The notes beneath the pieces are model-generated. The model had not been told where the DNA came from. It was given only the letters and a program-made list of their open reading frames with translations, and searched no databases. The translations under genes and the position numbers were made by a program. From the NCBI GenBank assembly GCA_963742085.1, contig CAVUKM010000015.1, positions 139,113 to 203,112 on the forward strand: a stretch of 64,000 nt of DNA, in the 5' to 3' direction. Every line of letters starts with the position of its first letter. The stretch's first letter is position 1. Source of the stretch: an uncultured Alphaproteobacteria bacterium. Lineage in GTDB: Bacteria; Pseudomonadota; Alphaproteobacteria; Rhizobiales; Xanthobacteraceae. Below, one piece after another: positions 25,477 through 64,000 of this stretch.

Positions 25477-25505
25477 TCCCGGCTCGGAAGCTTAGGAATA
25501 ACTAG

Positions 25506-26959
25506 CACTACTTTGGCAGATTTATTCACGCCGTTGCTTTTCGCCGATTTGTCGTCTGCAGTACGGGCATCGCTGAGGTCGTGGTCGAACGATGAGTTCG
25601 ACGATGGCGTGGCGTACGGCCGGCAGGCTCGGCTGAGGCGGTGGACCGTTGATTTTTTTTTCCGCCCCGCTTGTGCGAGACGGCGATGCTGGAGGAATGC
25701 GTAAGCGATCATGGTCATGAGGGCATGACGATGGAGGCCTTGCCAGGATCGTCCCTCGAAGTGATCAAGCCCGAGTTCTTCTTTCAACTGCTGATGGGCC
25801 TGTTCGCAAATCCATCGCGCTTTGATCGTGGCAGCTAACGTGCGCAGATCCGTCTTGGCCGGCAGATTGGCGAGATAATATTTCCTCTCTCCCGACGCCC
25901 TGTGTTCACCGATGAGCCAGGCTTCGTCCCCCGGAAGATGCTGCTGGCCCTTGTCCTTGATCCGCTGCGGAGGTCCATCAGCGGTCCGCACGCGAACCGC
26001 GGCGAAGCGAGCTTCCAACCGGCCCTTGGTGCCGTTTCGCCAACTCACATTTTGCCACTTGGCATCGGCCAGCATGTCTTCGGCCGCCGTCGACAATACA
26101 TCGGGAATGTGCCGCTTGCGGGGACGACCCCGACCGGCAACCGGCCAGATCAGTTTTACCCCGACCGGATAAACCTTCTGGTGACGAGGGATACCGACGG
26201 CCCAGGCCAGGCCGCGTGTCGTGAGCCCCTGACGGAACGGCGCGCTGAGGCCGTAACCGGCATCCGCCAGCACACAGCCAAAACGCATACCGGCTGCCAT
26301 CACGCGATCGATCTCCGCCAAGGCGATCTCTGGCTTGGTCCGCGCTGCGCGGTGCTCGACCGGAACACCCGCACGCTTTAAACGCACCGGATTACTCGTC
26401 CAACTCTCGGGAACGAAGAGACGTAATGCCACCATTACCGGCACTTCACCCCGCGCAAGCGTCAGCGACACCAATGTTTGGCAATTGGCCGTCTTGCCGA
26501 GAGACGAGGCATATTGCGGAGCGACACCAACCGAACGATCACCCTTCTTCGGCATCGCTGTGTCGTCGATGACCAGCACCGCATCTTTGCCGCCGACCAG
26601 GCGATCGGCCTGAACCAGCAGTTCTGTCTCCAACGGCGCCGCATCCCAGACGCCATCAGCGATGAAATGGTGCAATTGGTCATAGTCGCCCGGTGCCAGA
26701 CGTGCTGCCATCGGCTGGACGCTCTTTCGATCGCCTGGTCCAATCAGTCCCGAGATATAAAGCGGACACATCCGTCGCCGAGCCTTGTGACCCAAGCGAT
26801 CCAGAGAATGGCTTGAGCCAGCGTCCAAGCTCGTCTTCCCACTTCGGCGTCGTGTTCACCATGGTCGGCCCTCCAAAAGCCGACCACCCATGAATCATTG
26901 AAAATCTGATTCGGGAATCCAGTTTCGCCAATCAATCGCCAAAATCTGCCAAAGTAGTG
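25506..26959 (-). mobile_element. IS701-family element
   Basis: Perfect 18-bp TIR CACTACTTTGGCAGATTT / AAATCTGCCAAAGTAGTG with CTAG on both sides. Confidence 0.93.
25522..26862 (-). pseudogene. IS701 transposase with frameshifts near 26805 and at a 9-base A/T run near 25655
   Basis: LVIDDT, VLADAGYG and RWICEQAHQQLKEELGLDHFEGRSW; WLKPF/LDRLGHK lie in different frames. Confidence 0.85.
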
Positions 26960-26963
26960 CTAG

Positions 26964-27792
26964 GGTCGAGACTCATTAAATCCACCATACAAGAGCGGCG
27001 ATCAGACAGACAGAGGCCAAGTAGTTTCGAGCCAGTCTGTCATAACGTGTTGCGATACGGCGGAAGTCCTTCAGCCTGTTGAATGCAGCTTCGATGCGCC
27101 AGCGAAGCTTGTAGAGGCGCTTGCTGAAGCGGAACGGTTGCTTCCTGTTGCTGCGATTTGGAATGACCGGCCTGGTTCCGCGCTCATCCAGTTCCTCGCG
27201 CAATTCGGCGCTTGAAGCTTGTCGCCAAGCATGCGTTTCGGCGACTTTACCCTGCGGATCAGGCGTTCTGCGACGGGCAGTCGTGGGCTTCACCTCCGGT
27301 CAACAGAATGGCGATGAGGCGTCCTTTAGCATCTGCGAGTGCGTGGATCTTCGTGTTGCGCCCTCCGCGCGAGCGGCCAACAGCCTGCTTCTGCTCCCCC
27401 CTTTTCCGCCCGATGCCGAGCGGTGCGCTTTGACGTGTGTGGAGTCGATCATCTGCGTGTCTGTGGATCGTCCGTTCCCAGCAAGCTCCCGGAACAGGCT
27501 TTCCCAGATGCCACGCCGCGCCCAGCGTACGAAGCGGTTATAGATCGTCGTCGGCGGACCATAAGCTTCCGGGCAATCGCACCAGCGGCAGCCGCACCTG
27601 AGCACGTGCACGATCCCGCTGATCACGCGTCGGTCATCGGCGCGCTCGACACCACGCACATCCTTCGGCAAATGCGGCTCAATCCGTGCCCATTGCTCGT
27701 CGCTTAGCCAGAACAGATTTCTGCTCATCAATTCTTCCCCAATACGAATCAACATCGTATTGTTCAAACAGAAAAATTAATGAGTTCTGACC
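26964..27792 (-). mobile_element. IS5-family element (two-frame transposase), damaged
   Basis: TIR GGTCGAGACTCATTAA / GGTCAGAACTCATTAA with CTAG flanks; WLSDEQW, IDSTHVKAH and RRIATRYDRLA; extra indels in the second frame. Confidence 0.9.
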
Positions 27793-27947
27793 CTAGTAGG
27801 CCCTCTCCACTCGTGCAGCATAGCAACCAGCTGCGACAAGATCAGGAAGTCCGCTTTGCCCCACACGAGCGGACGTCGTCAGGGTGACCGGTCATTTCCG
27901 CTAAGTGCCACCAATTTCGGAAGTGGTCCCTTCAGTCGACCATCCAA

Positions 27948-28377
27948 TCAGATAGGCTTCGCGAGCGGCTTGTCCTTCTCCACGATATAGTTGATCAATA
28001 ACCTGGACTTCGTATCGCCGGGTTTGCCTCCAGCGTGGGGCGTCTCGGGCGGGATTTGGAATGCCTCTCCAGCTTTGACTATGCGCGTCGGCTGCCCCTC
28101 GATTGGAATCTCGAAGCCACCACCTTCCATGACATAGCTCAATTCAATTCCAGGATGCGTGTGGCGCGCGATTGTCACGCCCGGCGGTATCGTCACGTCC
28201 ATGACGATGGTTGTGTAGCCCGGGACCGGACCGTCAATCTGCGACAAGATCTTGCGCGTCACCCCACCAGAGGAGGCCGGTTGAGCACCCTGTGCAGAAG
28301 CATCCGTAGCTACAGAATCCCGCAAGTCCGCAAATTGCACACGACGCTAAGCCCGCAAAACCTCGACGTGTTAGCAT
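27948..28377 (-). pseudogene. Cupin-domain protein with a Tat-like leader, frameshifted near 28315
   Basis: MLTRRGFAGLASCAICGLAGF, then VATDASAQ...RHTHPGIE...IPPETPH in another frame. Confidence 0.75.
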
Positions 28378-28658
28378 GATGTCCCTCCCGCTCGCGTCCG
28401 GGTCACTGATGCCTGGACTGCTTTACGCATAGTAGGCTGTGTTTCTTGCGCAGCAAGCGCGAACCGCAGATCGACAGGCCCTTAGGGTATACCAGACAGC
28501 CGCACCACCCTCCTCCCGCAACGCGTTATGCACTTTGCATGCTGCAGGAAGTCCTGCGCTTAGGGTCAATTTCGGAAATCGGCGCTTGTAACCGCGAGGT
28601 CTGCTTTGCTCCCAGGAGCCGACATCGTCAGCTTGGCCACGCACGTCCGGCAAGTGCC

Positions 28659-49129: not shown

Positions 49130-49975
49130 ATGACCTTGGAAACCGTTTCCCTGAACCGATCGCACGGCGGCACGCAGGGTGTCTACAGGCACGCCAGCCG
49201 CGAGACCGGTACGGACATGACCTTTTCGGTCTATGTTCCCCCGCATCAAGGCGGTGCGAAGCTCCCGGTCGTCTGGTATCTGTCGGGCTTGACCTGTACC
49301 CACGCCAACGTCACCGAGAAGGGCGAGTATCGCAAGACATGCGCCGAGCTGGGTTTGATTTTTGTCGCGCCCGACACCAGTCCCCGCGGCAAAGACGTAC
49401 CCGGCGATCCGGCTGGCGCCTATGATTTCGGGCTTGGCGCCGGCTTCTATGTCGACGCCACGCTGCCGCCGTTCTCGCAAAATTACCGCATGTGGAGCTA
49501 CGTGACCAATGAGCTGCCCGAACTGGTCGCCGCCAATTTCCCGGCCGATTTCAAACGGCAATCGATCCTCGGGCACTCGATGGGGGGCCACGGCGCGCTG
49601 ACGATAGCGCTCGCGCACCCCGACCGCTACCGCGCCGCCAGCGCCTTCTCGCCGATCGTCGCGCCCTCGCAAGTCCCCTGGGGTATCAAGGCGCTCGGAG
49701 GCTATCTCGGCGACAACAAGCAAGCATGGCGCAAGCATGATGCAATCGCGCTGATCGAGGACGGCGCCCGATTTTCAGATTTGCTGGTCGACATCGGCGA
49801 TGCCGATCCGTTTCTCGTCGAGCAACTCCGCCCGGAATTGCTGGAACGTGCATGCGCAAAGGCAGGTATACCTCTGAATCTGCGTCGGCAAAGCGGCTAT
49901 GACCACAGCTACTACTTCATTTCCACCTTCATGGCCGATCACCTGCGCTGGCATGCGGCGCGGCTCAAGGCATAG
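49130..49975 (+). CDS. fghA: S-formylglutathione hydrolase
   Basis: LSGLTCTH, APDTSPRG, GHSMGGHGA and YDHSYYF. Confidence 0.95.
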   Translation: MTLETVSLNRSHGGTQGVYRHASRETGTDMTFSVYVPPHQGGAKLPVVWYLSGLTCTHANVTEKGEYRKTCAELGLIFVAPDTSPRGKDVPGDPAGAYDFGLGAGFYVDATLPPFSQNYRMWSYVTNELPELVAANFPADFKRQSILGHSMGGHGALTIALAHPDRYRAASAFSPIVAPSQVPWGIKALGGYLGDNKQAWRKHDAIALIEDGARFSDLLVDIGDADPFLVEQLRPELLERACAKAGIPLNLRRQSGYDHSYYFISTFMADHLRWHAARLKA

Positions 49976-50290: not shown

Positions 50291-50399
50291 GTCGTGATCC
50301 GTGAACTCACCCAGCGGGTTGTATAAGGTAGTTTGGCCAAGTATCAAACCGGGACCAGCTCCACTACTGGCCGGCGGAAGAAACTCTCAGGGAGAAACA

Positions 50400-51587
50400 A
50401 TGATCCGGCTGCTTGTCGGTCTCGTCGTCGGCATAAGCGCGCTGGGTAGCAGCGCACTTGCGGCCGATCCGGTCGAAATCGGCATCGGCTATCTTCGCCG
50501 CGTCGGCGCAAAGCCGACATTGTCGCTGGTCGAACAGCCGACGGCAGATGACGGCGTTGCCGGCGCCCGGCTGGCGCTTGAAGACAACAACACGACCGGC
50601 AAGTTCCTGAATCAACATTTCACCCTCGAGGAGCTGCGGCTCAAGGAAGGTGACGACCCTGCCGCCGCGGCCAGGACGCTGGCCGACCGGAACATCGCTT
50701 TCATCATTGCCGACCTTCCCGCGGACGCGGTTCTGAAGGCCGCCGACGCCATCCGCGACCGCGGCGCGGTGTTGTTGAATGCCGGTGCGATCGACGATCG
50801 CCTGCGCGAGGAAGATTGCCGGCCCAACGTGATTCACGTTGCCCCGACACGTTCGATGCTGGCTGACGGCCTCGCTCAGTATCTCGTCTGGAAGCAGTGG
50901 AAGCGCTGGCTACTGGTGGTTGGCTCGCATGAGGAGGACAAGCTCTATGCGGAAGCACTGCGCCGCGCCGCCTCTCGCTTTGGCGCCAAGATCGTCCAGG
51001 AACGGGTCTTCGAGGATACGGGTGGCGCGCGGCGCACCGACAGCGGCGTGACGCTGATCCAGCGTCAGATGCCGGTATTCACTCAGCAGGCGCCCGCCTA
51101 CGACATTCTTGTCGCCTCCGATGAAAGTGAGGTCTTTGCCTCGTACCTGCCCTACCGGACCTGGGACCCGAGGCCGGTCGCGGGATCGGCCGGCCTGGTT
51201 CCGAAAAGCTGGGACGCCGCTCAGGACCAATGGGGCGCGGTGCAGATGCAAAACCGGTTCCTGAAGCTGAATTCCCGCCGCATGACACCCCTGGACATGC
51301 AGGCATGGACGGCGGCACGCATGATCGGCGAGGCAGCCTCGCGGGTGAATTCAGCCGATCGCGCGGCGTTGCTCGGTTTCCTCAAAGGACCGGATTTTTC
51401 CGTGGCGGCATTCAAGGGACAGCGGCTAACGCTGCGATCGTGGAACCTGCAGCTCCGTCAGCCTATTTTACTGGCGGATGGCCGCATGGTGGTTTCGGTG
51501 TCCCCGCAAGAGGGATTCCTGCACCAGGTCTCGGAACTCGATACGCTTGGCATGGATCAACCCGAAACCAGGTGCAAGCTGCACTGA
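50400..51587 (+). CDS. Periplasmic binding protein of the PQQ-dehydrogenase-associated ABC system (LutA/PedA2-like)
   Basis: Signal peptide; DNNTTGKFL, LADGLAQY and QWGAVQMQNRF; first gene of an ABC operon. Confidence 0.8.
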   Translation: MIRLLVGLVVGISALGSSALAADPVEIGIGYLRRVGAKPTLSLVEQPTADDGVAGARLALEDNNTTGKFLNQHFTLEELRLKEGDDPAAAARTLADRNIAFIIADLPADAVLKAADAIRDRGAVLLNAGAIDDRLREEDCRPNVIHVAPTRSMLADGLAQYLVWKQWKRWLLVVGSHEEDKLYAEALRRAASRFGAKIVQERVFEDTGGARRTDSGVTLIQRQMPVFTQQAPAYDILVASDESEVFASYLPYRTWDPRPVAGSAGLVPKSWDAAQDQWGAVQMQNRFLKLNSRRMTPLDMQAWTAARMIGEAASRVNSADRAALLGFLKGPDFSVAAFKGQRLTLRSWNLQLRQPILLADGRMVVSVSPQEGFLHQVSELDTLGMDQPETRCKLH

Positions 51588-51593
51588 CGTGCG

Positions 51594-52580
51594 ATGGAGA
51601 ATTACCGGATGTGGCATCGTTGCCTGCTCGTCGGAACTGCGCTTTGGTTTGCAGGCACCCTGCCCGCCCGCGCCTACGTCGCCTATGTGTCGAACGAAAA
51701 GAGCAACACCGTTTCGGTGATCGACACCGACAAGTGGGCCGTCATCAAGACGATCAAGGTTGGCCAGCGGCCGCGCGGGATCGAATTCACCCGGGACGGT
51801 AAGTTCGTGCTGGTTGCGGTTGGCGACGATGACACCATCCAGATGATCGATACCGCCACTCAGGAAGTCGCCGACACCCTGCCCTCCGGGCCAGATCCCG
51901 AACTGTTTGTTCAGGACAAGGCCGGCAAAATTCTCTATGTCGCCAACGAGAACGACAACACCGTCACCATCATCGATCTCGAAAAACGCGCGCGGATGGG
52001 CGACATTCAGGTCGGTGTCGAACCTGAAGGCATGGCGATCAGCCCGGATGGAAGATTTCTGATCAATACGTCCGAGACGACCAACATGGCTCATTTCATC
52101 GATACCCAGACGCGCCAGATCGTGGCCAATGTCCTGGTCGCGTCGCGGCCGCGTTTTGCCGAATTCAAGCGCGACGGCTCGGAATTGTGGGTTTCCTCGG
52201 AGATCGGCGGTACCGTGTCCATCATCGATCCGGTCAAGCATACGGTCGCGACAAAAATCACCTTCGATATTCCGGGTCTCCGCAAGGAAGCAATCCAGCC
52301 CGTGGGAATCAGTATCACCGCCGACGGCAAGACCGCATTTATCGCGCTCGGGCCCGCCAATCGGGTCGCCGTCGTTGATACCACCAGCCATACGGTCATA
52401 AAATATCTCCTGGTCGGGCAACGGGTCTGGCACATGGCCTTTACACCAGACGAAAAATGGCTCCTGGTCACGAACGGCATATCCAACGACGTGTCGGTCA
52501 TCGATGTTGCGGCGCTCAAGGTGATCAAGACCATTCAGGTCGGCGAACTGCCCTGGGGCATCACGATCGCGAAACAATGA
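51594..52580 (+). CDS. YVTN-type beta-propeller protein
   Basis: Repeated TVSVID...IKVGxxPxG units. Confidence 0.88.
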   Translation: MENYRMWHRCLLVGTALWFAGTLPARAYVAYVSNEKSNTVSVIDTDKWAVIKTIKVGQRPRGIEFTRDGKFVLVAVGDDDTIQMIDTATQEVADTLPSGPDPELFVQDKAGKILYVANENDNTVTIIDLEKRARMGDIQVGVEPEGMAISPDGRFLINTSETTNMAHFIDTQTRQIVANVLVASRPRFAEFKRDGSELWVSSEIGGTVSIIDPVKHTVATKITFDIPGLRKEAIQPVGISITADGKTAFIALGPANRVAVVDTTSHTVIKYLLVGQRVWHMAFTPDEKWLLVTNGISNDVSVIDVAALKVIKTIQVGELPWGITIAKQ

Positions 52581-53395
52581 TGACACCTGACATTTCCGCC
52601 GCCAGCGGCGAGGCAACCGGCCTTCACGATCGATCCCATCCGGAGGCTGCAGCTCTGGCGATCGAAGGCGTCAGCCACAGCTACGGCCCCCGCAAGGCGC
52701 TCGACAACGTCAGCTTCACCGTGGCGGCCGGCAGCTTTACGGCGCTCCTTGGCCTCAACGGCGCAGGCAAGAGCACGCTGTTTTCAATCGTCACGCGGCT
52801 CTTCGGCATGCAGACCGGACATATCCGTATTTTCGGCAACGATATCCAGCGCGAGCCCGGCGAGGCCCTGCGCCGAATGGGCGTGGTGTTTCAACCGCGC
52901 ACGCTGGACCTCGATCTCTCCGTCACGCAAAATCTACTCTATCATGCCGCCCTTCATGGTATCGACCGGCGCGAGGCGCGGATGCGTTCGGACGAAGTTT
53001 TGTCACGGATGGGTCTTGCCGACCGGCTCGGCAGCAAGGTGCGCGATCTCTCCGGCGGGCAAATGCGGCGACTGGAAATCGCGCGGGCACTTTTGCACCG
53101 GCCGCGTCTCCTGCTGCTCGACGAGGCGACGGTTGGACTGGACGTCAAGGCCCGGACCGAGATCCTCGGCCATGTGCGGGGGCTCGTAATTGAGAAAGGC
53201 ATCGGCGTGTTATGGGCCACGCATCTCTTCGACGAGATCAAGCCAAGCGATGATCTTGTCATCCTCCACCGGGGACGCATTCTCGCGGAAGGCAAGGTGG
53301 CGTGCATCGTCGCGAAAGCCAAGACGCGCGACCTGAATTCTGCGTTCGTAGAGTTGACCGAAACCGGTCCGGAATCCGAGGGCACCGTGCCATGA
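52577..53395 (+). CDS. ABC transporter ATP-binding protein
   Basis: GLNGAGKS, LSGGQ and LLDE. Confidence 0.93.
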   Translation: MMTPDISAASGEATGLHDRSHPEAAALAIEGVSHSYGPRKALDNVSFTVAAGSFTALLGLNGAGKSTLFSIVTRLFGMQTGHIRIFGNDIQREPGEALRRMGVVFQPRTLDLDLSVTQNLLYHAALHGIDRREARMRSDEVLSRMGLADRLGSKVRDLSGGQMRRLEIARALLHRPRLLLLDEATVGLDVKARTEILGHVRGLVIEKGIGVLWATHLFDEIKPSDDLVILHRGRILAEGKVACIVAKAKTRDLNSAFVELTETGPESEGTVP

Positions 53396-54240
53396 GCGCC
53401 GTGATCATACACGACAGGCCGGCGGGATTTTCGCTCGCGCAATATCTTGCCTGCATGAACGGTATCGTTTGGCGCGAGGGATTGCGCTTCGTACATCAGC
53501 GCGAACAATTCATCTCGGCGCTGGTACGACCGCTGGTATGGCTGTTCATCTTCGCCGCCGGCTTCCGCCAGGTGCTCGGCATTTCGATCATCCCGCCGTA
53601 CGAAACCTATATTCCCTACGAGGTCTACATTACGCCGGGGCTGATGGCGATGATCCAGCTCTTCAACGGCATGCAATCGTCGCTTTCGATGGTCTACGAC
53701 CGCGAGATGGGTAACATGCGCACCCTGTTGGTGAGCCCGCTGCCACGCTGGTACCTGCTGTTCTGCAAGCTTCTCGCAGGTGCTGCAGTCTCCGTCCTCC
53801 AGGTCTCCGCTTTCCTCCTGATCGCGTGGTTCTGGGACATTGAACCGCCGCCGATCGGCTATCTCACGGTGTTGCCCGCGCTTGCACTTTCCGGACTGAT
53901 GCTCGGAGCGCTGGGCATGCTGATCTCGTCCGGTATCAAGCAGCTGGAGAACTTTGCGGGTGTGATGAACTTCGTCATCTTCCCGATGTTCTTTGCTTCC
54001 TCCGCCCTTTACCCGCTATGGCGGGTGCAGGAGGGCAGCCCGATGCTTTATTACGTGTGCCTGCTCAATCCCTTTACCCATGCGGTCGAGCTGATTCGCT
54101 TCGCATTGTATGGAAAGATGAACTGGATTTCGCTGGCGGTTGTTGGCGGCTGTACGGCCGCCTTCATGATCGGCGCGATGCTCGCCTACGATCCGTCACG
54201 CGGGCTGAGCCGCCGCGGTCCCGCTGGAGGCGAGACATGA
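53392..54240 (+). CDS. ABC-2-type permease of the alcohol-dehydrogenase-associated system
   Basis: ALVRPLVWL, SMVYDREMG and NPFTHAVELIR. Confidence 0.88.
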   Translation: MSAVIIHDRPAGFSLAQYLACMNGIVWREGLRFVHQREQFISALVRPLVWLFIFAAGFRQVLGISIIPPYETYIPYEVYITPGLMAMIQLFNGMQSSLSMVYDREMGNMRTLLVSPLPRWYLLFCKLLAGAAVSVLQVSAFLLIAWFWDIEPPPIGYLTVLPALALSGLMLGALGMLISSGIKQLENFAGVMNFVIFPMFFASSALYPLWRVQEGSPMLYYVCLLNPFTHAVELIRFALYGKMNWISLAVVGGCTAAFMIGAMLAYDPSRGLSRRGPAGGET

Positions 54241-54851
54241 AATGGTTGACGACGCTCTGCGTGGTGGCTGCGGTGGCCGGGCCGATTGATCAAGGTTTCG
54301 CCGCCGATCCGCGCTATCCGGACTGGCCGTGCGCCCAGGCCAAGGTGCCGGAAGTCTCGCTTGCGGCGGTCTGGAACGGTCCCGCTCTCGATGACGCCAC
54401 AAGCAAGTGGAAGGATGATCCCAGGGTCAGCGCGCTCGTTCCACGATTGGCGGCGCGACGCACGCCGCTCGATCAGGCGGAGAAAACGATCGTCGAGTTT
54501 TTGTCGGAATCGGCCGCTGAAAAGAAAGACAGAGGCAAGCTTCTATTCGCCGGTCTGTTTGAAACGCTCAACGCCGAGCGCGCCACCGTGATGAATGGAC
54601 TTGAGCGCGTCACCCGAAAGCAGCGCGAAGCCGCCGAGAGGGTTCGCAGCGACACGCTGACGCTGCAGGCGCTGCAGGACGCGCCTGCCAAGGACCAGGC
54701 CAAGATAGATGAACTCGGCAACCAGCTGGTGTGGGAGACGCGGATTTTCGAAGACCGGCGGCGTGTCGTCAAATTCGTGTGCGAGGTACCGACCGCGATC
54801 GATCAACGGCTGTTTGCGTTGGGACGCGTGATCCAGCAGGAAGTGGAATAG
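54237..54851 (+). CDS. Exported hypothetical protein (position equivalent to lutG)
   Basis: Signal peptide; WPCAQ and FVCEVP motifs; start overlaps the permease stop. Confidence 0.75.
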   Translation: MKWLTTLCVVAAVAGPIDQGFAADPRYPDWPCAQAKVPEVSLAAVWNGPALDDATSKWKDDPRVSALVPRLAARRTPLDQAEKTIVEFLSESAAEKKDRGKLLFAGLFETLNAERATVMNGLERVTRKQREAAERVRSDTLTLQALQDAPAKDQAKIDELGNQLVWETRIFEDRRRVVKFVCEVPTAIDQRLFALGRVIQQEVE

Positions 54852-54891
54852 CACGCACGACGCACGGTCCCGCCCCTGCCCCTTCGGTGGG

Positions 54892-55467
54892 TTAACGCGG
54901 GAGCGATTTCTCCTCGTTGGCCCGCGGCTCCGGCTGTAAATCGGCGAGCGGCAAATCGGCACGCTGCCAGCCGTCCGTGCCTTCGGGATACCATGCGATG
55001 TTGGAATATCCGTAGGACATTGCCCGTTTTGCCGCGTTCCACGACATCCAGCAATCGGCCAGGCAGTAGATCACCAGAAGCTTCGCGCTATTGCCGCCGG
55101 AGGCGCGGACAAGGCCATTGCGCAGATAATCCTCGGTCGCCGGCGCCAGTGTTCCGTATCCCGTATCGGGCAGCCAGACGCTGCCGGGGATGTTTGACCT
55201 TGGCTTATCGCGCCAGACCGTACCGGCGGGAAGATTTGGCGGCTTCGGCGGACGCGGTAGCACATCGACGAAGGCGGCAGCCCCGGAACGCCAGACCGCT
55301 TCGGCCTGCCCGGTCGTAAGAACGCGGGCACCGGCGAGCGTTGCCGGCACCGTCGCCCGATAATTATCCGTGCGGTATCCCTCTGGCTCTGGAGGATTTT
55401 CCTGTGCGCGCCCAAACGCTGTCAGCGCGAGCATCGCCGCAATCAGGCTTGCAAGTGCTAACCTCAC
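54892..55467 (-). CDS. Exported rhodanese-like protein with a CxxCW motif
   Basis: YCLADCWMSWNAAKR and WYPEGTDGW. Confidence 0.85.
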   Translation of the reverse strand: MRLALASLIAAMLALTAFGRAQENPPEPEGYRTDNYRATVPATLAGARVLTTGQAEAVWRSGAAAFVDVLPRPPKPPNLPAGTVWRDKPRSNIPGSVWLPDTGYGTLAPATEDYLRNGLVRASGGNSAKLLVIYCLADCWMSWNAAKRAMSYGYSNIAWYPEGTDGWQRADLPLADLQPEPRANEEKSLPR

Positions 55468-56360
55468 GGCTGCTTCGCCGACATCTCCGCTGTGATCGGC
55501 CGATCGTTCTCGTCGAGCAACGGCACGCCGAAATCGAGCAATATCTTGTTGATCTCCGGCTGGTTCTCCTGAATCAAACGGTTGAGCACCCGTTTCCAGT
55601 TCTGATCAGACGGACGAACTCCCATGCCGATGCGGTAGATCAGCTTTGGCCCCGACGTTTCCTTGACCAGCGGCGTGACGTGCAACGGCGGATTGGCATG
55701 CTTGGCGTAATAGCCCGCCATCGGTCCCCACAGCACGCCGGCGTCAATCTCTCCCGCCGTCAAATCCTTGATCATCGTATCCACCGAGGAGTCGACGCGG
55801 GTGTCGATCATCAGCGGATAAGGCCTGGCATTGGCCATGAGGCCGTTGGCGGCCATGTTGGTGGCGGGCGGCGTGCCTGCGACGATGCCAAGACGTTTAC
55901 CCTTCAGGCGATCATCGCCGAGCGATGCGACGTCCTCCAGTCCGCTACCAGACTTGGCTACCAAAGCATAGGCCGTACGATAGTAGGGATTGGTGCCCTG
56001 GACGAGCTCATCGCCTTGCGGGAAACCCATGATGACGTCGCACCGATGAGCGGCCAGCGTCATTCGAACGAAACCGGTCGCCTGCGGAAAGTACATATAG
56101 TCGAGCTTCTTCTGCAGCTTTTCGGCGAACAGTTCAGCAAGCTTGTTCTCAAATCCCTCGCCCTTCTCGTCGGAAAATGGGAGATTGCGCGGGTCAGCAC
56201 ATACCCGCAAGACCTTGGGGTCGACCAGTTCGAATGACAGGTCTGCGTTGTCCGGCGGCTGCTGTGCCATAGCGGTTTCCCGGTCGCCCATTACCGCGGC
56301 GGCGATACAAAGCGCTGCAATCATCTGCCATCGGCGCAACGCGGTATTGTTCATCGTCAT
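55464..56360 (-). CDS. xoxJ: XoxJ/MxaJ-like periplasmic binding-fold protein
   Basis: LRVCADPRNLPFS...GFENKLA and TNPYYRT; adjacent to xoxF. Confidence 0.82.
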   Translation of the reverse strand: MTMNNTALRRWQMIAALCIAAAVMGDRETAMAQQPPDNADLSFELVDPKVLRVCADPRNLPFSDEKGEGFENKLAELFAEKLQKKLDYMYFPQATGFVRMTLAAHRCDVIMGFPQGDELVQGTNPYYRTAYALVAKSGSGLEDVASLGDDRLKGKRLGIVAGTPPATNMAANGLMANARPYPLMIDTRVDSSVDTMIKDLTAGEIDAGVLWGPMAGYYAKHANPPLHVTPLVKETSGPKLIYRIGMGVRPSDQNWKRVLNRLIQENQPEINKILLDFGVPLLDENDRPITAEMSAKQP

Positions 56361-56485
56361 CTCCCTTGTCGCTTGGCGCAGCAGCGCAAAAATTTTGACG
56401 CCGGTATGTTGGCTGGCGCCATTATTCCTCATTTCCTACTCATGCGTGTATCTTCGGCTTTTTGCGCGGCGGGTCAAATCCACAG

Positions 56486-56519
56486 ATCGTCCCGGCGCGG
56501 TATTTTGCGCCGGGACGAT
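56486..56519 (-). terminator. Perfect 13-bp stem-loop after xoxF
   Basis: ATCGTCCCGGCGC - 8-nt loop - GCGCCGGGACGAT. Confidence 0.6.
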
Positions 56520-56528
56520 TGGTTTGGC

Positions 56529-58334
56529 TCACTGCGGCAGTGCGAACACCGTCAGCGTGCCGCCGAGCGCGGTATAGTTGCTCAGCGCCGCATAGCCGCC
56601 GACGGCGCCCAGACCCGCGGTCGGATCGGTCAGGCCCGCCGCAAGCCCGATCCCCGCCCAGCCGCCGACCCCGGACAGCACCGCAACATACTGCCGGCCG
56701 CCCTGCTCATAGGTCGTGACGTTGCCGATGATCCCCGACGGCGTCTTGAACTTGTACAGTTCCTTGCCCGTCTTGGCATCGACCGCCTTCAGATAGCCTT
56801 CCAGCGTGCCGTAGAACACCACCCCGCCCGCGGTCGCCAGCGCGCCCGACCACACCGAGAACTGCTCCTTGTTCGACCACACGATCTTGCCGGTCTTGCC
56901 GTCCCAGGCGATGAAGTTGCCCATGTTGGTTTCACCGGGAGGCGGATACATCGACAGCGTCGCCCCGACATAGGGCTGGCCCGCCGTGTAGCTCACCTTG
57001 AACGGCTCGTAGTCCATGCAGACGTGGTTGGTCGGCACGTAGAACAGCTGGGTGTCCGGCGAATACGCCGCCGGCTGCTCGTCCTTGCTGCCCAGCGCCG
57101 CCGGGCAGATGCCCTTGACGTTGTGGTCCTCACCCGCCTTGTCGGTCGAGTACTGGTCGAGGACCTTCGGCCGGCCATAGGTCGGCGAGCTCTTGTTCAT
57201 GTCGACGCCCGAAGTCCAGTTGACCTTCGGATCGTACTTTTCGGCAACCAGCAATTCGCCGGTGGCGCGGTCCAGCGTATAACCGAGCCCGTTACGGTCG
57301 AAATGGGTCAGCAGCTTGCGCGGCGCCCCGCCGACCTGCTGGTCGGACAGGATCATCTCGTTGATGCCGTCGTAATCCCATTCGTCATGCGGCGTCATCT
57401 GGTAGACCCATTTGGCCATGCCGGTGTCCGGATCGCGCGCCCAGATCGTCATCGACCATTTGTTGTCGCCCGGACGCTGCTTCGGATTCCAGGTCGAGGG
57501 ATTGCCCGAACCGTAGTACATGAGGTTCAGAGCGGGGTCGTAGGAGATCCAGCCCCACGTCGCGCCGCCGCCGATCTTCCACTGATCGCCCTGCCAGGTC
57601 TTGAGGCTGGAATCCTTGCCGACCGGCTTGCCAAGTTCGGTGGTCTTCGCCCCATCGACCAGGATCTGGTCGTCCGGTCCTTCCGAATAGGCCCGCCAGA
57701 CCTGCTTGCCGGTCTTGATGTCGTAGGCCGTCATGTGAGCCTGCACGCCAAACTCACCGCCGGAAATCCCGATCAGCACCTTGTCCTTGATCACCATCGG
57801 CGCCGAGGTGCCGGTGGCGCCCTTGCTCGGATCGCCGTTCTTGGCCGTCCATACCACCTTGCCGGTCTTGGCATCGAGCGCCACCAGCGTGGTATCGGCC
57901 TGATGCAGGAAGATCTTGCCATCGCCATAGGCGACGCCGCGGTTGACCGTATCGCAGCACATCACCGGAATGACGTTGGGATCCTGCTTGGGCTCATACT
58001 TCCAGACGATCTTGTTGTCATGGGCAAGATCGAGCGCATAGACCGTGTTGGGGAACGGCGCATGCACATACATCATGTCGCCGATGATCAGCGGGCCACC
58101 CTCATGGCCGCGCAGCACGCCGGTCGAAAATGTCCAGGCCACCTGCAGCTTGCCCACATTGGCCGCCGTGATCTGATTGAGCTTCGAATACCGATGATTG
58201 GAATAGTCCCCGGTCGGCATCACCCATTCCTTCGGGTTCTGCGACATCTTGCTCAGTTCCTCATTGGCATTGGCGACGCCCGCGCCAAATGCCGCAAAGG
58301 CAAGACAGGTTGTTGCGAGTAGCACCTTGCGCAT
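56529..58334 (-). CDS. xoxF: Lanthanide-dependent PQQ methanol dehydrogenase
   Basis: 601 aa with signal peptide; vicinal MCCD; EWDYDG carrying the extra lanthanide-binding Asp (MxaF has DYAG). Confidence 0.95.
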
Positions 58335-58628
58335 AACGAAACCTCCCATGTTTTTTTCACGTTCTGTTTTGGTGCAGTGGGCACACGCCCAACGCCCATC
58401 GCCGGCTAGGGAATGCGTTGCCGAGATCCGGCAGCCGCATCCACTCACTTCTGTGAGACGTCGGCATCAAGTAAGCAGCCAACCGCGGTTCAATTGAGGC
58501 CGGCAATCATTCAAATGCTATGCTCGTCAACTGGAGCCGGCAAATAAAATTACTTTTGAATCTCTTGTCGCGCATGCTGCAATGCAGTCCATGGCATCAT
58601 GCTGAATTCGGCGATGGAGACGGCGCAG

Positions 58629-59558
58629 ATGACCATTCGTCACTCACTCTTTTTTGCCGCGGTCGCAGTGCTTGCCGGGCCGATATTTGCGCAGGAGCAG
58701 CACGGCGCTTTGCCCGTCAGCGAGATCGCCCCCGGTCTCTTTCTGCACCTCGGAGCAACGGCGCTGATGACGCGGGAAAATGAAGGCGACATCGCCAATG
58801 TCGGGTTCATTATCGGCGACGACGCGGTCGCCGTCATCGATACCGGCGGCAGCTTGCGCGAAGGCCGGCGGCTCCTTGCAGCTATTCGCTCCCGCTCAGA
58901 GAAGCCGATCCGGTACGTCATAAATACGCACGGCCACCCGGATCATATCTTTGGCAACGCCGCATTCATGGAAAACGGAACCCGTTTCGTCGGTCACAGG
59001 AATTTGCCGAGGGCGTTGGCTGTGCGCGGGCAGTTCTACATCGATGCTTTTCGCCGGATCATGGGCGACGATTTGATCGACGAAGTGCGCATTGTTCCGC
59101 CCACGCTTCTCGTCGATGGTACACTCACCCTCGATCTCGGGCACAGGAACCTCACTCTGCGGACTTGGCCGACAGCGCATAGCGACAGCGATCTCACCGT
59201 GCTCGACGAGCAAACCGGTACGCTGTTCGGCGGCGATCTTGTCTTCCTCGATCATGTACCCGTGGTCGACGGCAGCATTCGTGGCTGGCTGACGGCAATC
59301 GATGAACTCGGCGCAATTTCCGCGCAACGGCTGGTTCCCGGTCACGGACCCGAAAGCAACTGGCCAGGCGCTTTGGCCGACGAACGCCGATATCTGGAGA
59401 AGCTGGCGGCCGACGTCCGCGCGATGGTCGCCGATGGCAAACCCATAACGGCGGCTGCCAATACCGCCGCCGTGTCCGAGCGTTCACGATGGAAGCTGTT
59501 CGACGATTACAATGCACGAAACGCGACTGCCGCTTTCTCGGAAATTGAATGGGAATAG
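58629..59558 (+). CDS. Exported metallo-beta-lactamase-fold hydrolase (quinoprotein-associated)
   Basis: VIDTGGS, THGHPDH, AHSDSD and PGHG. Confidence 0.88.
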
Positions 59559-59611
59559 TCGACGTAGTGGACTATAGTGGGCTTGTTCCGGTCGTCGAAA
59601 GGACCGCGCCC

Positions 59612-60445
59612 ATGTTGAGCCGTCATTCCAGCTTGTTCTTGGCCACCGGTCTCCTGGCGGCCATGGTGCTTGGCGCGAGTCCGATACATGCCGCCACGCC
59701 GGATGCCTACGATCCATGGCCCGGCCTCGTTCAGGACATCTTCAACAATCGGCCGATGGACGATGGCGCAGGAGTCGTCGCCATCGAGATGCCATACCGT
59801 GCCGAGGATGCAGCGATCGTTCCCGTTACGCTGCGCGTCAAGCTTCCTCCAACCGATGGCCGCCGCGTCTTGGCGATCACCCTGGTCATCGACCAGAACC
59901 CGGCGCCGATGGCGGCGCGTTTCGACCTTGGCAAGGATTCCTCGGTATCCGAGGTCTCCACGCGGGTGCGGGTCAATAATTACACCGACGTCCATGCGGT
60001 CGCTGAACTGAGCGACGGCAAGCTCTACATGGCGAAAACCTTCGTGAAGGCTTCTGGCGGGTGTTCGGCGCCTGCGGCCAAAAACGCTGACGAAGCAAAG
60101 GCGCGACTAGGCCAGATACAATTCAGGCAATTCGCAAAGTCGACCGACGGTCCTCAAAGCGGCGCCCGCGAGGCCCAGATCATGATAGGGCACCCTAATA
60201 ATTCCGGCCTCCAGATGGACCAGGTCACCCGGCTCTACATTCCAGCGTTCTTCATCAACGAATTGCGGATTTGGCAGGACGACACGCTGGTCCTGGCGAT
60301 GCAAGGTGGAATCTCCATTTCGGAGGATCCCAACATTCGCTTCTCCTATGTGCCGAATGGCGCAAAGCGCATCCGCGTCGAGGCCAAAGACACCGAGGGC
60401 CATTTGTTCGAGAACGAATGGAAGGTCGAGAATTCAGGCATTTGA
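59612..60445 (+). CDS. Fused SoxYZ-like carrier protein (quinoprotein-associated)
   Basis: IDQNPAP, TRVRVNNYT, VKASGGCSAP and HPNNSGLQMDQ. Confidence 0.85.
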   Translation: MLSRHSSLFLATGLLAAMVLGASPIHAATPDAYDPWPGLVQDIFNNRPMDDGAGVVAIEMPYRAEDAAIVPVTLRVKLPPTDGRRVLAITLVIDQNPAPMAARFDLGKDSSVSEVSTRVRVNNYTDVHAVAELSDGKLYMAKTFVKASGGCSAPAAKNADEAKARLGQIQFRQFAKSTDGPQSGAREAQIMIGHPNNSGLQMDQVTRLYIPAFFINELRIWQDDTLVLAMQGGISISEDPNIRFSYVPNGAKRIRVEAKDTEGHLFENEWKVENSGI

Positions 60446-60499
60446 CACGGCGCGATAATTGCCTGAACCGGCAGGAGCCCGGCCGCGAGCGACCCGGCC

Positions 60500-60859
60500 T
60501 CAGAAACACCTCACTTCGGCTTCGGCCTGAGCCCTTCGCAGCTCATTGACCGCGCCTGTGGCCTGTTCGGAAGACCGGAATTGCCCGCCGAGGTTTCCAC
60601 GCACCTGCGACATGCTCAGGACCGTTTCTGCGGTGACGTACCGGTCATAAGGCACCAGCGACGCAATGACGTCGATCGAGCAGGAGCACTGATTGATCGC
60701 CTGCCGCGTTTCGCCATTGGCTTTCAGGCAGCCAAACACATACTCTGATCGCGCTGCGGTTGGATAATCGTTGACCTCGTCGGCGCGAACGGGAAGGCCA
60801 GCGGCCCCAAGCACGGCCAGCGCACAGCCAATAAGTCGCATCGATCCGGCAAGCGTCAT
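60500..60859 (-). CDS. Exported Cys-containing hypothetical protein
   Basis: Signal peptide; YVFGC, QCSCSID and terminal RCF; AGGAAGGA RBS. Confidence 0.7.
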   Translation of the reverse strand: MTLAGSMRLIGCALAVLGAAGLPVRADEVNDYPTAARSEYVFGCLKANGETRQAINQCSCSIDVIASLVPYDRYVTAETVLSMSQVRGNLGGQFRSSEQATGAVNELRRAQAEAEVRCF

Positions 60860-60995
60860 CGCGTCCTTCCTGCTGGTGAGGCGGTGAACTCCGGCTATTA
60901 TAGGGAAAAGAAACGCGACAAGGAAACGACCCATTAGATATTTGTCGACCCAATTGCATTGGCCCGCCGGGCGTGCGAGTTCGAACAAGGGCAAA

Positions 60996-61976
60996 ATGAA
61001 AAATTTCGTTCGCATTCTGTTGGCCATTGCCGTTCTTGCCGGGGCATCAGGCCCTCCTTGCCGCGCCGCGGAAACCATTCGGCTTGCAGTGCAGAAGACC
61101 GGAACATTCGCCTGGGAACTTGCGGTGATCCGGGCCCACGGCCTCGACAAGAAGGCGAACCTCGCGCTGCAGGTTGATGAGCTCGCCAGCCCGGAAGCCG
61201 GCAAGGTGGCGTTGCGCGGCGGCGCCGCCGACGTCATTGTCTCCGACTGGCTGTGGGTGGCAAGGGAGCGCGGGCTGGGCAGCAAACTTACATTCTATCC
61301 GTATTCGAGCGCGCTCGGCGCAGTAATGGTATCGAATGCTTCTCCGATCCGCACGTTGGCGGACCTCAAGGGCAGCAAATTGGCCGTCGCCGGCGGGCCC
61401 ATCGACAAGAGTTGGCTGTTGCTGCAGGCGTCGATGAAACAGGACGGCATTGACCTGAAGTCGGAGGCCACGATTGTCTACGGTTCGCCGCCGCTGCTGG
61501 CGGCGAAGACGCTCAGCGGGGAAATGGACGCTACGTTGAATTATTGGAATTTCTGCGCCGCATTGGAAGCGAAAGGCTTCCGACGCCTCACAGCGATTGA
61601 GGATATTCTGCCGAAGCTTGGCGCCAAGGGCCGCACGGCAATGGTCGGCTACGTCTTCGACGAGGTCTGGGGAAACTCAAACCGCGACGTGGTTGGCCGT
61701 TTCATCGCAATGACTCGCGTTGCGAAGGAGATTTTGACGACTTCGGACGAAGAATGGGAAAGGATTGCGCCGCTGACGGGTGCCACTGACGCGGCAACCC
61801 TGCGCGCATACCGCGATCGCTATCGGGAGGGAATTCCCCACCGTCCGGTCGCGGACGAAGAAGCCGATGCACGCGTTCTCTACCACGTGCTGGCCGAGTT
61901 CGGGGGCCGCGAACTTGTGGGCCCGGCCAGGGAACTCGATCCCGGCACCTTCTATCACGCGATCCCCGGGGATTGA
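60996..61976 (+). CDS. ABC substrate-binding protein (SsuA/NMT1-like)
   Basis: Signal peptide; KTGTFAWEL, DWLWVAR and LNYWNF; first gene of an ABC triplet. Confidence 0.82.
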   Translation: MKNFVRILLAIAVLAGASGPPCRAAETIRLAVQKTGTFAWELAVIRAHGLDKKANLALQVDELASPEAGKVALRGGAADVIVSDWLWVARERGLGSKLTFYPYSSALGAVMVSNASPIRTLADLKGSKLAVAGGPIDKSWLLLQASMKQDGIDLKSEATIVYGSPPLLAAKTLSGEMDATLNYWNFCAALEAKGFRRLTAIEDILPKLGAKGRTAMVGYVFDEVWGNSNRDVVGRFIAMTRVAKEILTTSDEEWERIAPLTGATDAATLRAYRDRYREGIPHRPVADEEADARVLYHVLAEFGGRELVGPARELDPGTFYHAIPGD

Positions 61977-61977
61977 G

Positions 61978-62715
61978 ATGCTCCGTCTTTTGTCCTTCGC
62001 CGTCTTTCTCGCGACCTGGTGGATTGCCGCGCTGTTCGCCGGCGGAGCGAAGCTGCCCGCTCCGCCCGCCGTGCTAGCGGCGATCGTTGTGGCGGCCGAA
62101 TCCGGCGCGCTGTTCGTCAATCTCGGCGTGACCCTGGCCCGCGTGGCCCTCTCCTTCACCTTGGCGATGACGCTGGGCACCGCGATCGGTTACCTGATGG
62201 GTCGGGTACGCCTTGCCGATCGACTGGGCGATCCCTGGCTCATATTGCTGCTCAACCTTCCGGCGCTCGTCGTCATCGTGCTCGCCTATATCTGGGCGGG
62301 ACTGACCGAGGTCGCGGCGATCGCGGCGATTGCCATCAACAAGCTGCCGACTGCCGTCGTGACGGTGCGCGAGGGAACCCGCGCGCTCGATCCATCGCTT
62401 GACGAAATGGCGAGGGTATTTGCTATTCCGCCCTGGAAAGCGTTCCGGCACGTCATATTGCCGCAACTGGCGCCCTACATCGCGGCTGCCGCGCGATCCG
62501 GTCTCTCCCTGGTATGGAAGATCGTGCTGGTTGCCGAATTGCTCGGACGCTCGAACGGCGTCGGCTTCGAGATCGGTGTCGCTTTCCAGCTCTTCGATAT
62601 CCCCCGCCTGCTCGCCTATTCGCTTACCTTCGTGGCGGTTGTGCTCGCGATCGAAACCGCGTTGGTTCAGCCGTTTGAAACCCGGCTATCGAGATGGCGC
62701 CCCCGTGCAGCTTGA
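61978..62715 (+). CDS. ABC permease (SsuC/TauC-like)
   Basis: GVTLARV, DEMARVF, AELLGRSNGVG. Confidence 0.88.
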   Translation: MLRLLSFAVFLATWWIAALFAGGAKLPAPPAVLAAIVVAAESGALFVNLGVTLARVALSFTLAMTLGTAIGYLMGRVRLADRLGDPWLILLLNLPALVVIVLAYIWAGLTEVAAIAAIAINKLPTAVVTVREGTRALDPSLDEMARVFAIPPWKAFRHVILPQLAPYIAAAARSGLSLVWKIVLVAELLGRSNGVGFEIGVAFQLFDIPRLLAYSLTFVAVVLAIETALVQPFETRLSRWRPRAA

Positions 62716-63433
62716 AGTCAACATCGCACGCAAAGCGTTTACGAACGTGGCGGGCGAGCGGCAAGACGTGCTCGTCGATTTCAATTTTGTGCTCGGCGCG
62801 GGAGAGGTCGGCGTCCTCGTCGGCCCGTCCGGCTGCGGCAAAAGCACATTGCTGAAGATCCTGGTCGGCCTCGACCATGACTATTTGGGTCGCGTTGAGC
62901 GTTCGGCAGATGCACGGATCGGCATGGTGTTTCAGGAACCCCGGCTCCTGCCATGGCGGTCGGTCGAGGAGAATGTGCGTCTTGCAGCGCCACAAGCGGA
63001 CGACGCAAAGCTTTCAATGCTGTTCGCCATTCTGGAATTGAACGCCCATCGCAACCATTTTCCCGGCGAATTGTCGCTCGGCCTTGCCCGGCGGGTCGCG
63101 CTTGCCCGGGCATTTGCGGTCGAGCCGGATCTTTTGATTCTCGACGAGCCGCTGGCCTCGCTGGACGACACCCTTGCAGTCCGCCTGCGCGACGAGATTG
63201 CCACACTGGTGGACAGCCGATCCATAACGACACTGCTTGTTACCCACAATGTCGATGACGCGATCCGCCTCGGTGACCGGGTATTTCTGCTGTCGCCGCG
63301 CCCGGCAAGGATTCTCGCCGAACTGCCAATTCGCACGCCGCGCAACGCGCGCGGCCAGGCCGAGATCGCCGCGATCAGGGCCGGCATTGAGCACTTGATC
63401 AACGGCGACCGCGCGAAGGAAGATGGCATATAG
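62705..63433 (+). CDS. ABC ATP-binding protein (SsuB/TauB-like)
   Basis: GPSGCGKS, VFQEPRLLPW, variant signature LSLGL, and ILDEP. Confidence 0.9.
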   Translation: MQLEVNIARKAFTNVAGERQDVLVDFNFVLGAGEVGVLVGPSGCGKSTLLKILVGLDHDYLGRVERSADARIGMVFQEPRLLPWRSVEENVRLAAPQADDAKLSMLFAILELNAHRNHFPGELSLGLARRVALARAFAVEPDLLILDEPLASLDDTLAVRLRDEIATLVDSRSITTLLVTHNVDDAIRLGDRVFLLSPRPARILAELPIRTPRNARGQAEIAAIRAGIEHLINGDRAKEDGI

Positions 63434-63479
63434 CGGCGCTTGCAGCGCATGCTAGAATGCGTTGGCGGAGGAGCTGGCG

Positions 63480-64000
63480 ATGAAGTGTTTTCTTGCAGGT
63501 GCGGCGCTCAGCCTCGGTCTCATTACCTTAACCGCAACGGCGCAGGATATGATGCGCGGCGTCGATCTTGCGTCGCCCGACATGGTTTCGGCTGAAATGA
63601 CTCGCGCCGAGGTCGTGACCGCGGTTGCGACGGCAACCCCCGCGCCCGCCGATTTCACTGGAAAGAGATTGTCCAACCTCGACCTGTCCGGGCTCGACCT
63701 CGCCCGCGTGATTTTTCGCGCAGCCCGGCTCAACAAGACGAAGTTGGCGGGCGCGAATCTCGACCATGCCGTCCTCGACCAGGCGTGGCTTCTCGAAGCG
63801 GATCTGACCGGTGCCAATTTGAGAGGTGCAAGCATATTCGCCGCGCAAATGGCCCGCGCCCATCTTGACGGTGCCGACCTCTCGAAGGCGCGTATTGCCG
63901 CCGACCTTACCGGCGCAAGCCTCGTCGGCGCCTCGATCGCCGACGCGCAGCTGGGCGCCGACATGCGCAACCAGTCGATGGGCCTCATGCGCGCGGTACT
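63480..64000 (+). CDS. Exported pentapeptide-repeat protein (partial; not in the ORF track)
   Basis: GGAGGAG RBS, signal peptide, then A(D/N)LxxA repeats such as ANLDHA, ADLTGANLRGA and ADLSKA; open to the window end. Confidence 0.85.
   Translation, partial: MKCFLAGAALSLGLITLTATAQDMMRGVDLASPDMVSAEMTRAEVVTAVATATPAPADFTGKRLSNLDLSGLDLARVIFRAARLNKTKLAGANLDHAVLDQAWLLEADLTGANLRGASIFAAQMARAHLDGADLSKARIAADLTGASLVGASIADAQLGADMRNQSMGLMRAV

Follow-up and report, generated by a model that had tools for sequence, protein, structure and literature searches.

The window analyzed here is a 64,000-nucleotide stretch of an uncultured alphaproteobacterium of the family Xanthobacteraceae (assembly GCA_963742085.1, contig CAVUKM010000015.1, positions 139,113 to 203,112 of the forward strand). 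It carries xoxF, the gene for a lanthanide (Ln)-type, pyrroloquinoline quinone (PQQ)-dependent methanol dehydrogenase, surrounded by genes for exported, cysteine-containing accessory proteins. The gene map was based on the listing of open reading frames (ORFs) and on NCBIfam/TIGRFAM and Pfam family scans of the window proteins. xoxF lies at 56529-58352 on the minus strand (TIGR03075, 779 bits). Three of its neighbors are the subject of this study: an exported rhodanese-like protein (54892-55467, minus strand; TIGR03865, 237 bits, cut-off 128), an exported SoxH-like hydrolase of the metallo-β-lactamase (MBL) fold (58629-59558, plus strand; ORF start 58599; TIGR04559, 401 bits, cut-off 280), and an exported carrier in which SoxY and SoxZ are fused (59612-60445, plus strand; ORF start 59549; TIGR04557, 285 bits, cut-off 140; Pfam SoxY and SoxZ). 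These three proteins, hereafter the trio or core, score 1.4 to 2 times the curated NCBIfam cut-offs. It is near certain that they represent the "quinoprotein relay", a catalogued set of accessory proteins of Ln-type PQQ alcohol dehydrogenases (ADHs), located in a Bradyrhizobium-type xox island.

The original prediction, made from the letters alone, had placed four exported proteins around xoxF, the fourth being a small Cys-containing protein of 119 aa (60500-60859, minus strand) that has no Pfam or NCBIfam match. All four genes lie at the positions and on the strands it gave; the trio was assigned to families far above the curated cut-offs, and the small protein is conserved in synteny. Two more exported proteins are encoded in the same block, the periplasmic binding-fold protein XoxJ (55464-56432, minus strand) and a 204-aa protein with two Cys (54237-54851, plus strand). 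Each accessory protein carries a Sec-type signal peptide with a positive N-terminus, a hydrophobic core, and an A-x-A-like site, as read from the translations.

Features of the core proteins

The carrier has a single Cys, which lies within the loop KASGGCSAP and aligns with the C-terminal GGC Cys of the solved SoxY structures 4uwq, 2ox5, and 2oxg. The proposal of a SoxYZ fusion keeping the carrier-arm Cys is thus borne out. Among 42 carrier copies from diverse genomes, the arm GGC[ST]xP is kept in 41, the exception (L052) having GAC, and the arm Cys is often the sole Cys of the protein.

The rhodanese-like protein had been described as a CxxCW rhodanese. The assignment to the rhodanese family agrees with TIGR03865 and with the predicted fold, but the spacing does not hold: the motif is C-x3-C-W (YCLADCWMSWNAAKR; YCLADCW), and it is invariant in 22 of 22 homologues. 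The family name "CXXCW" therefore misstates the Cys spacing of the TIGR03865 motif. The AlphaFold2 (AF2) model (pLDDT 83) matches the rhodanese fold with a Foldseek probability of 1.0, and the matches to this predicted model include bovine rhodanese, Sud, YgaP, TSTD1, and YnjE. The closest folds are sulfane-sulfur transferases, the periplasmic Sud and YnjE among them. The catalytic Cys of YOR285W and that of YgaP align with the first Cys of the motif. The loop CLADCWMS is unlike the CRxGx[RT] motif that characterizes thiosulfate sulfurtransferases.

The MBL-fold protein, correctly recognized as a hydrolase of this fold in the original prediction, has all the ligands of a binuclear site (HxHxDH, H, D, H), and none of its Cys is conserved. 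With numbering from the ORF start (58599), these ligands are HGHPDH, H194, D213, and H249, and they are kept in 16 of 18 diverse homologues. The nearest solved relatives in a PDB profile search are 8d2z (uncharacterized), chlorothalonil dehalogenase (Chd), and B1/B2 lactamases. Neither glyoxalase II (GloB) nor a persulfide dioxygenase (ETHE1/PDO) was found among the best 60 of 162 PDB profile matches (E up to 1e-6), and no ETHE1/PDO-type family was among the NCBIfam hits. Two SoxH-like paralogues encoded beside carriers in other genomes (L041:10175-11140 and L056:8724-9665) have lost metal ligands: HxHxDH is replaced by HTRPEF or LNLHPDY, and GDL by GGG or GGV. Judged by these replacements, both are probably catalytically dead.

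Co-inheritance of the core with PQQ alcohol dehydrogenases

The distribution of the trio was surveyed in 401 genomes sampled from the same phylum, a carrier being counted as present when a stop-free, full-length fused copy was found. The fused carrier occurs in 36 of the 401 genomes. A TIGR03075 PQQ-ADH is encoded in all 36, compared with 79 of 401 genomes overall, which confirms the predicted association with quinoproteins. The SoxH-like MBL is likewise present in 36 of 36 carrier genomes. The rhodanese-like family was found in 31 genomes, every one of them carrier-bearing. Carrier, hydrolase, and rhodanese are therefore nested by prevalence (36, 36, and 31 of 36 carrier genomes), and they make up a true core that is inherited together and tied to PQQ-ADHs.

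Regions of approximately 20 kb around the carrier were compared in 40 diverse loci from the carrier-bearing genomes. In 33 loci, no more than 600 bp separate the MBL gene from the carrier gene, and in 25 the rhodanese gene is found at a distance of up to 10 kb. Of the 40 loci, 24 encode a PQQ-ADH within 10 kb, and in 19 of these 24 it has the Ln-coordinating Asp. Every ADH examined has the Cys-Cys pair. A stand-alone MBL-carrier-rhodanese operon accounts for nine of the 40 loci. In five, a gene for an exported thioredoxin-like protein with the motif WCPIC lies approximately 1.2 kb from the carrier; no such gene is present in the window locus. One example (L038:10949-11359) is located just beyond the rhodanese gene and recalls SoxS of the Sox system.

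A further 62 full-length related loci, from Bradyrhizobium, Tardiphaga, Rhodopseudomonas, Methylocystis, Methylosinus, Mesorhizobium, Phyllobacterium, Rhodopila, and others, share a stable gene order. The ABC transporter genes and the gene for the 204-aa protein converge on a block of rhodanese, xoxJ, xoxG, and xoxF genes; the MBL and carrier genes run away from this block and converge on the gene for the small four-Cys protein. An ADH with the Ln-type Asp is encoded in every one of these loci that has a XoxF5-type gene nearby. The trio copy in the window is an ordinary Bradyrhizobium-type member and not a new kind of system.

The reverse dependence does not hold. At least 14 carrier-less genomes encode ADHs that combine Cys-Cys with the Ln Asp (WD[YF]DG), and their Ln-ADH loci usually contain a PedA1A2BC-like transporter and no MBL nearby. 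The trio is thus an accessory that is optional for Ln-ADHs, and an obligatory role in PQQ-ADH maturation is ruled out because these genomes have Ln-type Cys-Cys ADHs without it. Two further ideas were also rejected. One was that the trio is an obligatory factor in forming the Cys-Cys disulfide. The other was that the rhodanese is part of the ABC transporter: genome-wide, its occurrence tracks the carrier and not the transporter.

Relationship to the Sox system

The original prediction likened the gene set to Sox chemistry without any soxABCD. The likeness is well founded, as the set is exported, Cys-based, and Sox-derived. The absence of sox genes applies to the locus, where SoxXA, SoxB, and SoxCD are not encoded, but not to the genome. 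A canonical Sox system, with soxB, two soxA, and soxYZ/soxY-like genes, is located on contig C10, far from the xox island. Its genes lie at 24735-28546 (soxA, soxY-like, and soxB among them) and 230223-231754, and a second soxA-soxYZ set is included.

The window carrier is homologous to the canonical proteins domain by domain, with its Cys at the SoxY arm position, and the window MBL is SoxH-like. The differences are equally clear. In canonical Sox, the arm is a free C-terminal GGCGG and SoxZ is a separate protein, whereas the window carrier is a SoxY-SoxZ fusion with an internal Cys, after which come SAP and a linker. It is to PQQ-ADHs, and not to sulfur oxidation, that the gene set is tied. 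The carrier scores 73 bits against TIGR04488, below the cut-off of 125.

In four genomes (G298, G277, G123, and G256), SoxH-like MBLs are encoded 3-4 kb from canonical, unfused soxYZ, and no PQQ-ADH was found in three of them (G298, G277, and G123). The carrier-hydrolase pair therefore looks to have been inherited as a pair from Sox, since SoxH-like MBLs lie near true soxYZ even in genomes without a PQQ-ADH. This descent implies that the hydrolase acts on something bound to a SoxY-type Cys. The thioredoxin-like partner of some carrier loci is a further resemblance, to SoxS.

XoxF, its duplicate, and XoxJ

The window XoxF has the vicinal Cys-Cys motif VMCCDTVN and the Ln-coordinating Asp in WDYDG. 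xoxF occurs twice in the genome, approximately 13 kb apart, at 56484-58352 of the window and at G000:C15:209881-211749 (L001:6882-8750). The two copies are 99.73% identical at the nucleotide level over 1869 bp, a stretch limited to the coding region. Downstream of the second copy are xoxG, flhA, and gfa. The window copy is not followed by xoxG; xoxJ and the rhodanese gene come after it. An xoxF between xoxJ and the MBL gene is absent in most Bradyrhizobium relatives. The double occurrence looks like a recent duplication, or a gene conversion, into the ancestral slot.

xoxJ (TIGR03871, 309 bits; XoxJ/PedG type) probably starts at 56354 and is found in 56 of the 62 related loci. MxaJ, whose function has been described (PMC12276312), is a homologue, and by this analogy XoxJ would be a PQQ-insertion chaperone. 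We regard it as context, outside the thiol set.

Companion proteins and neighboring genes

The small exported protein had been described as a CxC protein. Its export is supported by the signal peptide, but "CxC" is incomplete: four Cys are invariant (C21, C35, C37, and C95 of the mature form), in the pattern C..CSC..C-terminal RCF, and the C-terminal sequence AQAEAEVRCF is invariant as well. It is predicted to form a five-helix bundle (AF2 pLDDT 87), and a fold search gave no PDB match below E = 1. At 90% identity, its family comprises 6201 homologue clusters, and at 50% identity there are 758; they are called "hypothetical" wherever a source names them.

The proposed membership of this protein in the relay was not upheld. 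Its gene adjoins xoxF in three carrier-less genomes (G107, G352, and G392), and it is likewise found with xoxF in G096 and G048, where the trio is encoded at a different place. A search of 10 PedH-type genomes that have the carrier did not find it; the positive control of this search recovered five of five. The four-Cys protein tracks XoxF5-type islands independently of the carrier, and it lies outside the relay core because the three XoxF5 genomes without a carrier have it and the search of the 10 PedH-type carrier genomes did not find it.

The 204-aa protein is predicted to be helical and belongs to no Pfam or NCBIfam family. In the alignment it has two invariant Cys, in the motifs DWPC and VCEVP. 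Its gene directly follows that of the PedC-like permease and is divergently oriented with respect to the rhodanese gene; it was found in 53 of the 62 related loci, and also beside an ABC transporter in the carrier-less G392 (L078). The family has 7182 homologue clusters, "hypothetical" wherever named. The 204-aa protein may accompany the lanthanide-type ABC transporter as an unnamed partner. The four-Cys and 204-aa proteins are separate, unnamed companions of XoxF5 islands.

The transporter itself is PedA1A2BC-like (50301-54240, plus strand) and comprises a TIGR03863 binding protein, a TIGR03866 YVTN propeller, an ATPase, and a permease. Similar transporters are encoded in 42-46 of the 62 related loci and in many carrier-less Ln-ADH loci. 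The role of PedA1A2BC in Pseudomonas putida, of the lanthanide-uptake type, is taken from a review of the ped cluster (PMC12997753). fghA (49130-49975, plus strand), for the S-formylglutathione hydrolase of the glutathione-dependent formaldehyde route, was named from a reading of the translation and occupies the same position in 27 of the 62 related loci. gfa and flhA are located past the window end, and together with fghA they frame the xox island.

On the other side, an NMT1/THI5-like (NitT/TauT-type) ABC transporter (60942-63433, plus strand; binding protein, permease, and ATPase; Pfam NMT1) lies beside the four-Cys gene. This arrangement recurs in 33 of the 62 related loci, and such transporters lie near Ln-ADH genes in several carrier-less genomes. 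The binding protein has weak matches to SsuA/TauA (sulfonate/taurine) models. An exported pentapeptide-repeat protein resembling PedD of the ped cluster is encoded at the window edge (63462-63998, plus strand), and genes like it occur in 14 of the 62 related loci. A scan of 54000-61200 gave four promoter-like sites (mean of shuffles 1.8, sd 1.5) and seven terminator-like sites (mean of shuffles 6.3, sd 2.9), with no clear excess in either case.

Previously described counterparts

The gene set, its association with PQQ-ADHs, and the competing ideas about its role are already in databases and papers. In NCBIfam, the "quinoprotein relay" set consists of the carrier (TIGR04557), zinc metallohydrolases 1 and 2 (TIGR04558 and TIGR04559), and TIGR03865. 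The window proteins belong to the same families and show the same association with PQQ dehydrogenases; we found no substantive difference. These families were defined by comparative genomics only, with no function attached.

A 2026 review of the ped cluster in Applied and Environmental Microbiology covers the same trio, namely PP_2666 (rhodanese), PP_2677 (SoxYZ-like), and PP_2678 (SoxH-like) of P. putida KT2440 and the counterparts META1p1703-1705 of Methylorubrum extorquens AM1, and reports that the trio is absent from Pseudomonas aeruginosa (PMC12997753). The roles proposed there are disulfide formation, cofactor stabilization, and shielding of PQQ from sulfur nucleophiles (PMC12997753). 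A 2024 mSystems paper described SoxYZ fusions and soxH beside ADH and xoxF genes and suggested that methanol dehydrogenase is protected from thiosulfate (PMC11237559). The same genes were noted in Hyphomicrobium denitrificans in a 2024 paper in Communications Biology (PMC11582611). Our literature search on PP_2666/2677/2678, META1p1703-1705, SoxH/SoxY with lanthanides, and rhodanese with xoxF returned genomic mentions and hypotheses only and no demonstrated function, in agreement with the original prediction.

The P. putida ped cluster and the M. extorquens locus share with the window the three families and the neighbors, i.e., the PedA1A2BC-type transporter, PedG/XoxJ, an Ln-type ADH, and a pentapeptide protein. 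Pseudomonas-type loci differ in having the arm AAGGGC[ST]xP and MBLs below the TIGR04559 cut-off, whereas the window represents a XoxF5/TIGR04559 variant with the arm KASGGCSAP. The window island also differs from ped-type loci by the addition of the four-Cys protein, the one not found in the PedH-type genomes, and the two-Cys 204-aa protein.

Discussion

What the trio does can be approached from the ancestry of its parts. Because all of them come from sulfur-handling systems, parsimony favors a sulfur substrate. Thiosulfate inhibition has also been reported: as cited in two papers, Li et al. (2023) observed that thiosulfate inhibits the growth of H. denitrificans on methanol, but not on formate (PMC11237559, PMC12997753). 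According to the same two papers, this inhibition is ascribed to sulfur adducts on PQQ, and both propose a protective role for the trio (PMC11237559, PMC12997753). On these grounds we tentatively prefer, at somewhat less than even odds, a cut-down, Sox-derived periplasmic cycle in which a carrier Cys captures inorganic sulfur, the adduct is hydrolyzed, and the dehydrogenase is protected.

In such a cycle, the single GGC-loop Cys of the carrier would covalently bind a reactive species of inorganic sulfur. The resulting adduct would most likely be an S-sulfonate or thiosulfonate derived from sulfite or thiosulfate, or sulfane sulfur. The rhodanese-like protein, through its catalytic Cys and another Cys four positions further along, would load, unload, or redox-reset the carrier Cys. 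The zinc-type hydrolase would then cleave the adduct in a SoxB-like reaction, releasing sulfate and restoring the free thiol. Sulfur nucleophiles would in this way be kept off the electrophilic Ln-PQQ center and the strained Cys-Cys disulfide of XoxF/PedH; alternatively, such sulfur adducts would be stripped off again. The trio would be an optional accessory for protection or repair and would have no part in maturation, and the four-Cys protein would stand outside it. A related possibility, less radical than the aldehyde relay considered below, is a molybdenum-independent scavenger of sulfite or thiosulfate dedicated to the protection of Ln-PQQ enzymes.

Several points weigh against this sulfur-capturing cycle. 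The assignment to sulfur rests on ancestry and parsimony. The locus encodes no SoxXA-like loader that could form the adduct. A rhodanese with thiosulfate as its substrate would be a source of sulfite in its own right. The metal-bound hydroxide chemistry of an MBL fits a thioester or another adduct equally well. In five of the diverse loci, the nearby ADHs are only of the Ser type (Ca) or otherwise non-Asp. Any protection by the trio is dispensable, because at least 14 Ln-ADH genomes do without it. RB-TnSeq (random barcode transposon-site sequencing) of PP_2666, PP_2677, and PP_2678 showed minimal phenotypes, though without rare earths (PMC12997753).

The best-surviving alternative, which we nevertheless consider unlikely, is redox maintenance, in which the C-x3-C rhodanese and the carrier Cys form a relay that makes the vicinal Cys-Cys disulfide of XoxF/PedH, or re-forms it after accidental reduction. 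The same role has been proposed in the ped-cluster review (PMC12997753). It accords with the Cys-Cys pair on every ADH examined, with the two invariant Cys four residues apart in the rhodanese, and with the exported WCPIC protein added in five of the 40 diverse loci. However, it leaves the hydrolase without a role, although this is the most tightly linked partner (adjacent in 33 of 40), and the carrier is homologous to SoxY and does not have a thioredoxin fold. The trio-less genomes with Ln-type Cys-Cys ADHs argue against it, as do P. aeruginosa ExaA, which does without the trio (PMC12997753), and the assembly of active Cys-Cys MxaFI in Escherichia coli from nine mxa genes alone (PMC12276312). 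The formation of the XoxF disulfide, one of two functions put forward in the original prediction, is weakened by these genomes and by the E. coli assembly; the trio might still repair the disulfide.

The other proposed function was the carriage of formaldehyde as a Cys thiohemiacetal. In its full form, the carrier Cys binds an aldehyde as a thiohemiacetal, the PQQ-ADH oxidizes this to a thioester, and the MBL hydrolyzes the thioester in the manner of glyoxalase II, releasing the acid. MBL-fold thioesterases, such as glyoxalase II, exist, and some XoxF enzymes oxidize formaldehyde. The trio is restricted to PQQ-ADH genomes and is usually encoded beside the ADH gene, and fghA, flhA, and gfa frame the island; we give a low probability to its being the periplasmic, protein-thiol counterpart of glutathione-dependent formaldehyde/aldehyde oxidation. 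We found no positive evidence for the scheme, and overall we consider it improbable. The MBL profile finds B1/B2 lactamase-like hydrolases, with no glyoxalase II among the best 60 of 162 PDB matches. The rhodanese is given no role, yet it never occurs without the carrier. The carrier-MBL pair looks to have been inherited from Sox clusters of bacteria without PQQ-ADHs, and the trio is missing from many Ln-ADH loci of the methylotroph type. For formaldehyde in particular, the trio also accompanies PedH-type ethanol dehydrogenases, and the nearest relatives of carrier, hydrolase, and rhodanese are all in sulfur-handling systems. Carriage of formaldehyde is unsupported but keeps a low probability.

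Two further explanations are less likely still. In the first, sulfide attacks disulfides to give persulfides, the rhodanese moves the sulfane sulfur to the carrier, and the MBL acts as a persulfide dioxygenase. The pairing of an MBL with a rhodanese is a hallmark of persulfide dioxygenase-rhodanese systems (ETHE1/PDO with TST; CstB and PRF fusions), which likewise combine an MBL-fold enzyme with a thiol carrier and a rhodanese domain. The fold matches include a solved fusion of an MBL with a rhodanese (3tp9), and the carrier could stand in for glutathione, which is lacking in the periplasm. However, the window MBL groups with lactamase-like hydrolases, and no ETHE1/PDO appeared among the best 60 of 162 PDB matches or the NCBIfam hits; the window system also differs in being periplasmic and in having a protein, not glutathione, as the carrier. 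All seven binuclear ligands are kept, as in hydrolases, and no sulfide:quinone reductase is encoded in the locus. We therefore consider this explanation improbable.

The weakest candidate, that the trio helps deliver or insert the lanthanide or PQQ, for instance by releasing Ln from a chelator with no thiol adduct, would suit the position of the genes among those for the PedA1A2BC-like lanthanide transporter, a TonB receptor, and xoxJ, the frequent abutment of the rhodanese gene on the ABC permease gene, and the association mainly with Ln-type ADHs, but it is very unlikely, as the invariant SoxY-arm Cys and rhodanese Cys pair point to covalent thiol chemistry, which hard Ln3+ does not use, the ABC transporter and an Ln-ADH occur together in at least 14 genomes without the trio, and the occurrence of the rhodanese goes with the carrier and not with the transporter.

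With more than 7800 carrier clusters in public data, the trio is among the most conserved uncharacterized gene sets attached to lanthanide-dependent alcohol oxidation. The contribution of this study is to draw its boundaries more sharply, as a nested core that is optional for Ln-ADHs, with a carrier-hydrolase pair that looks to be of Sox descent and with two separate companions. The chemistry of the trio bears on the survival of Ln-PQQ enzymes in a sulfur-rich or aldehyde-rich periplasm.

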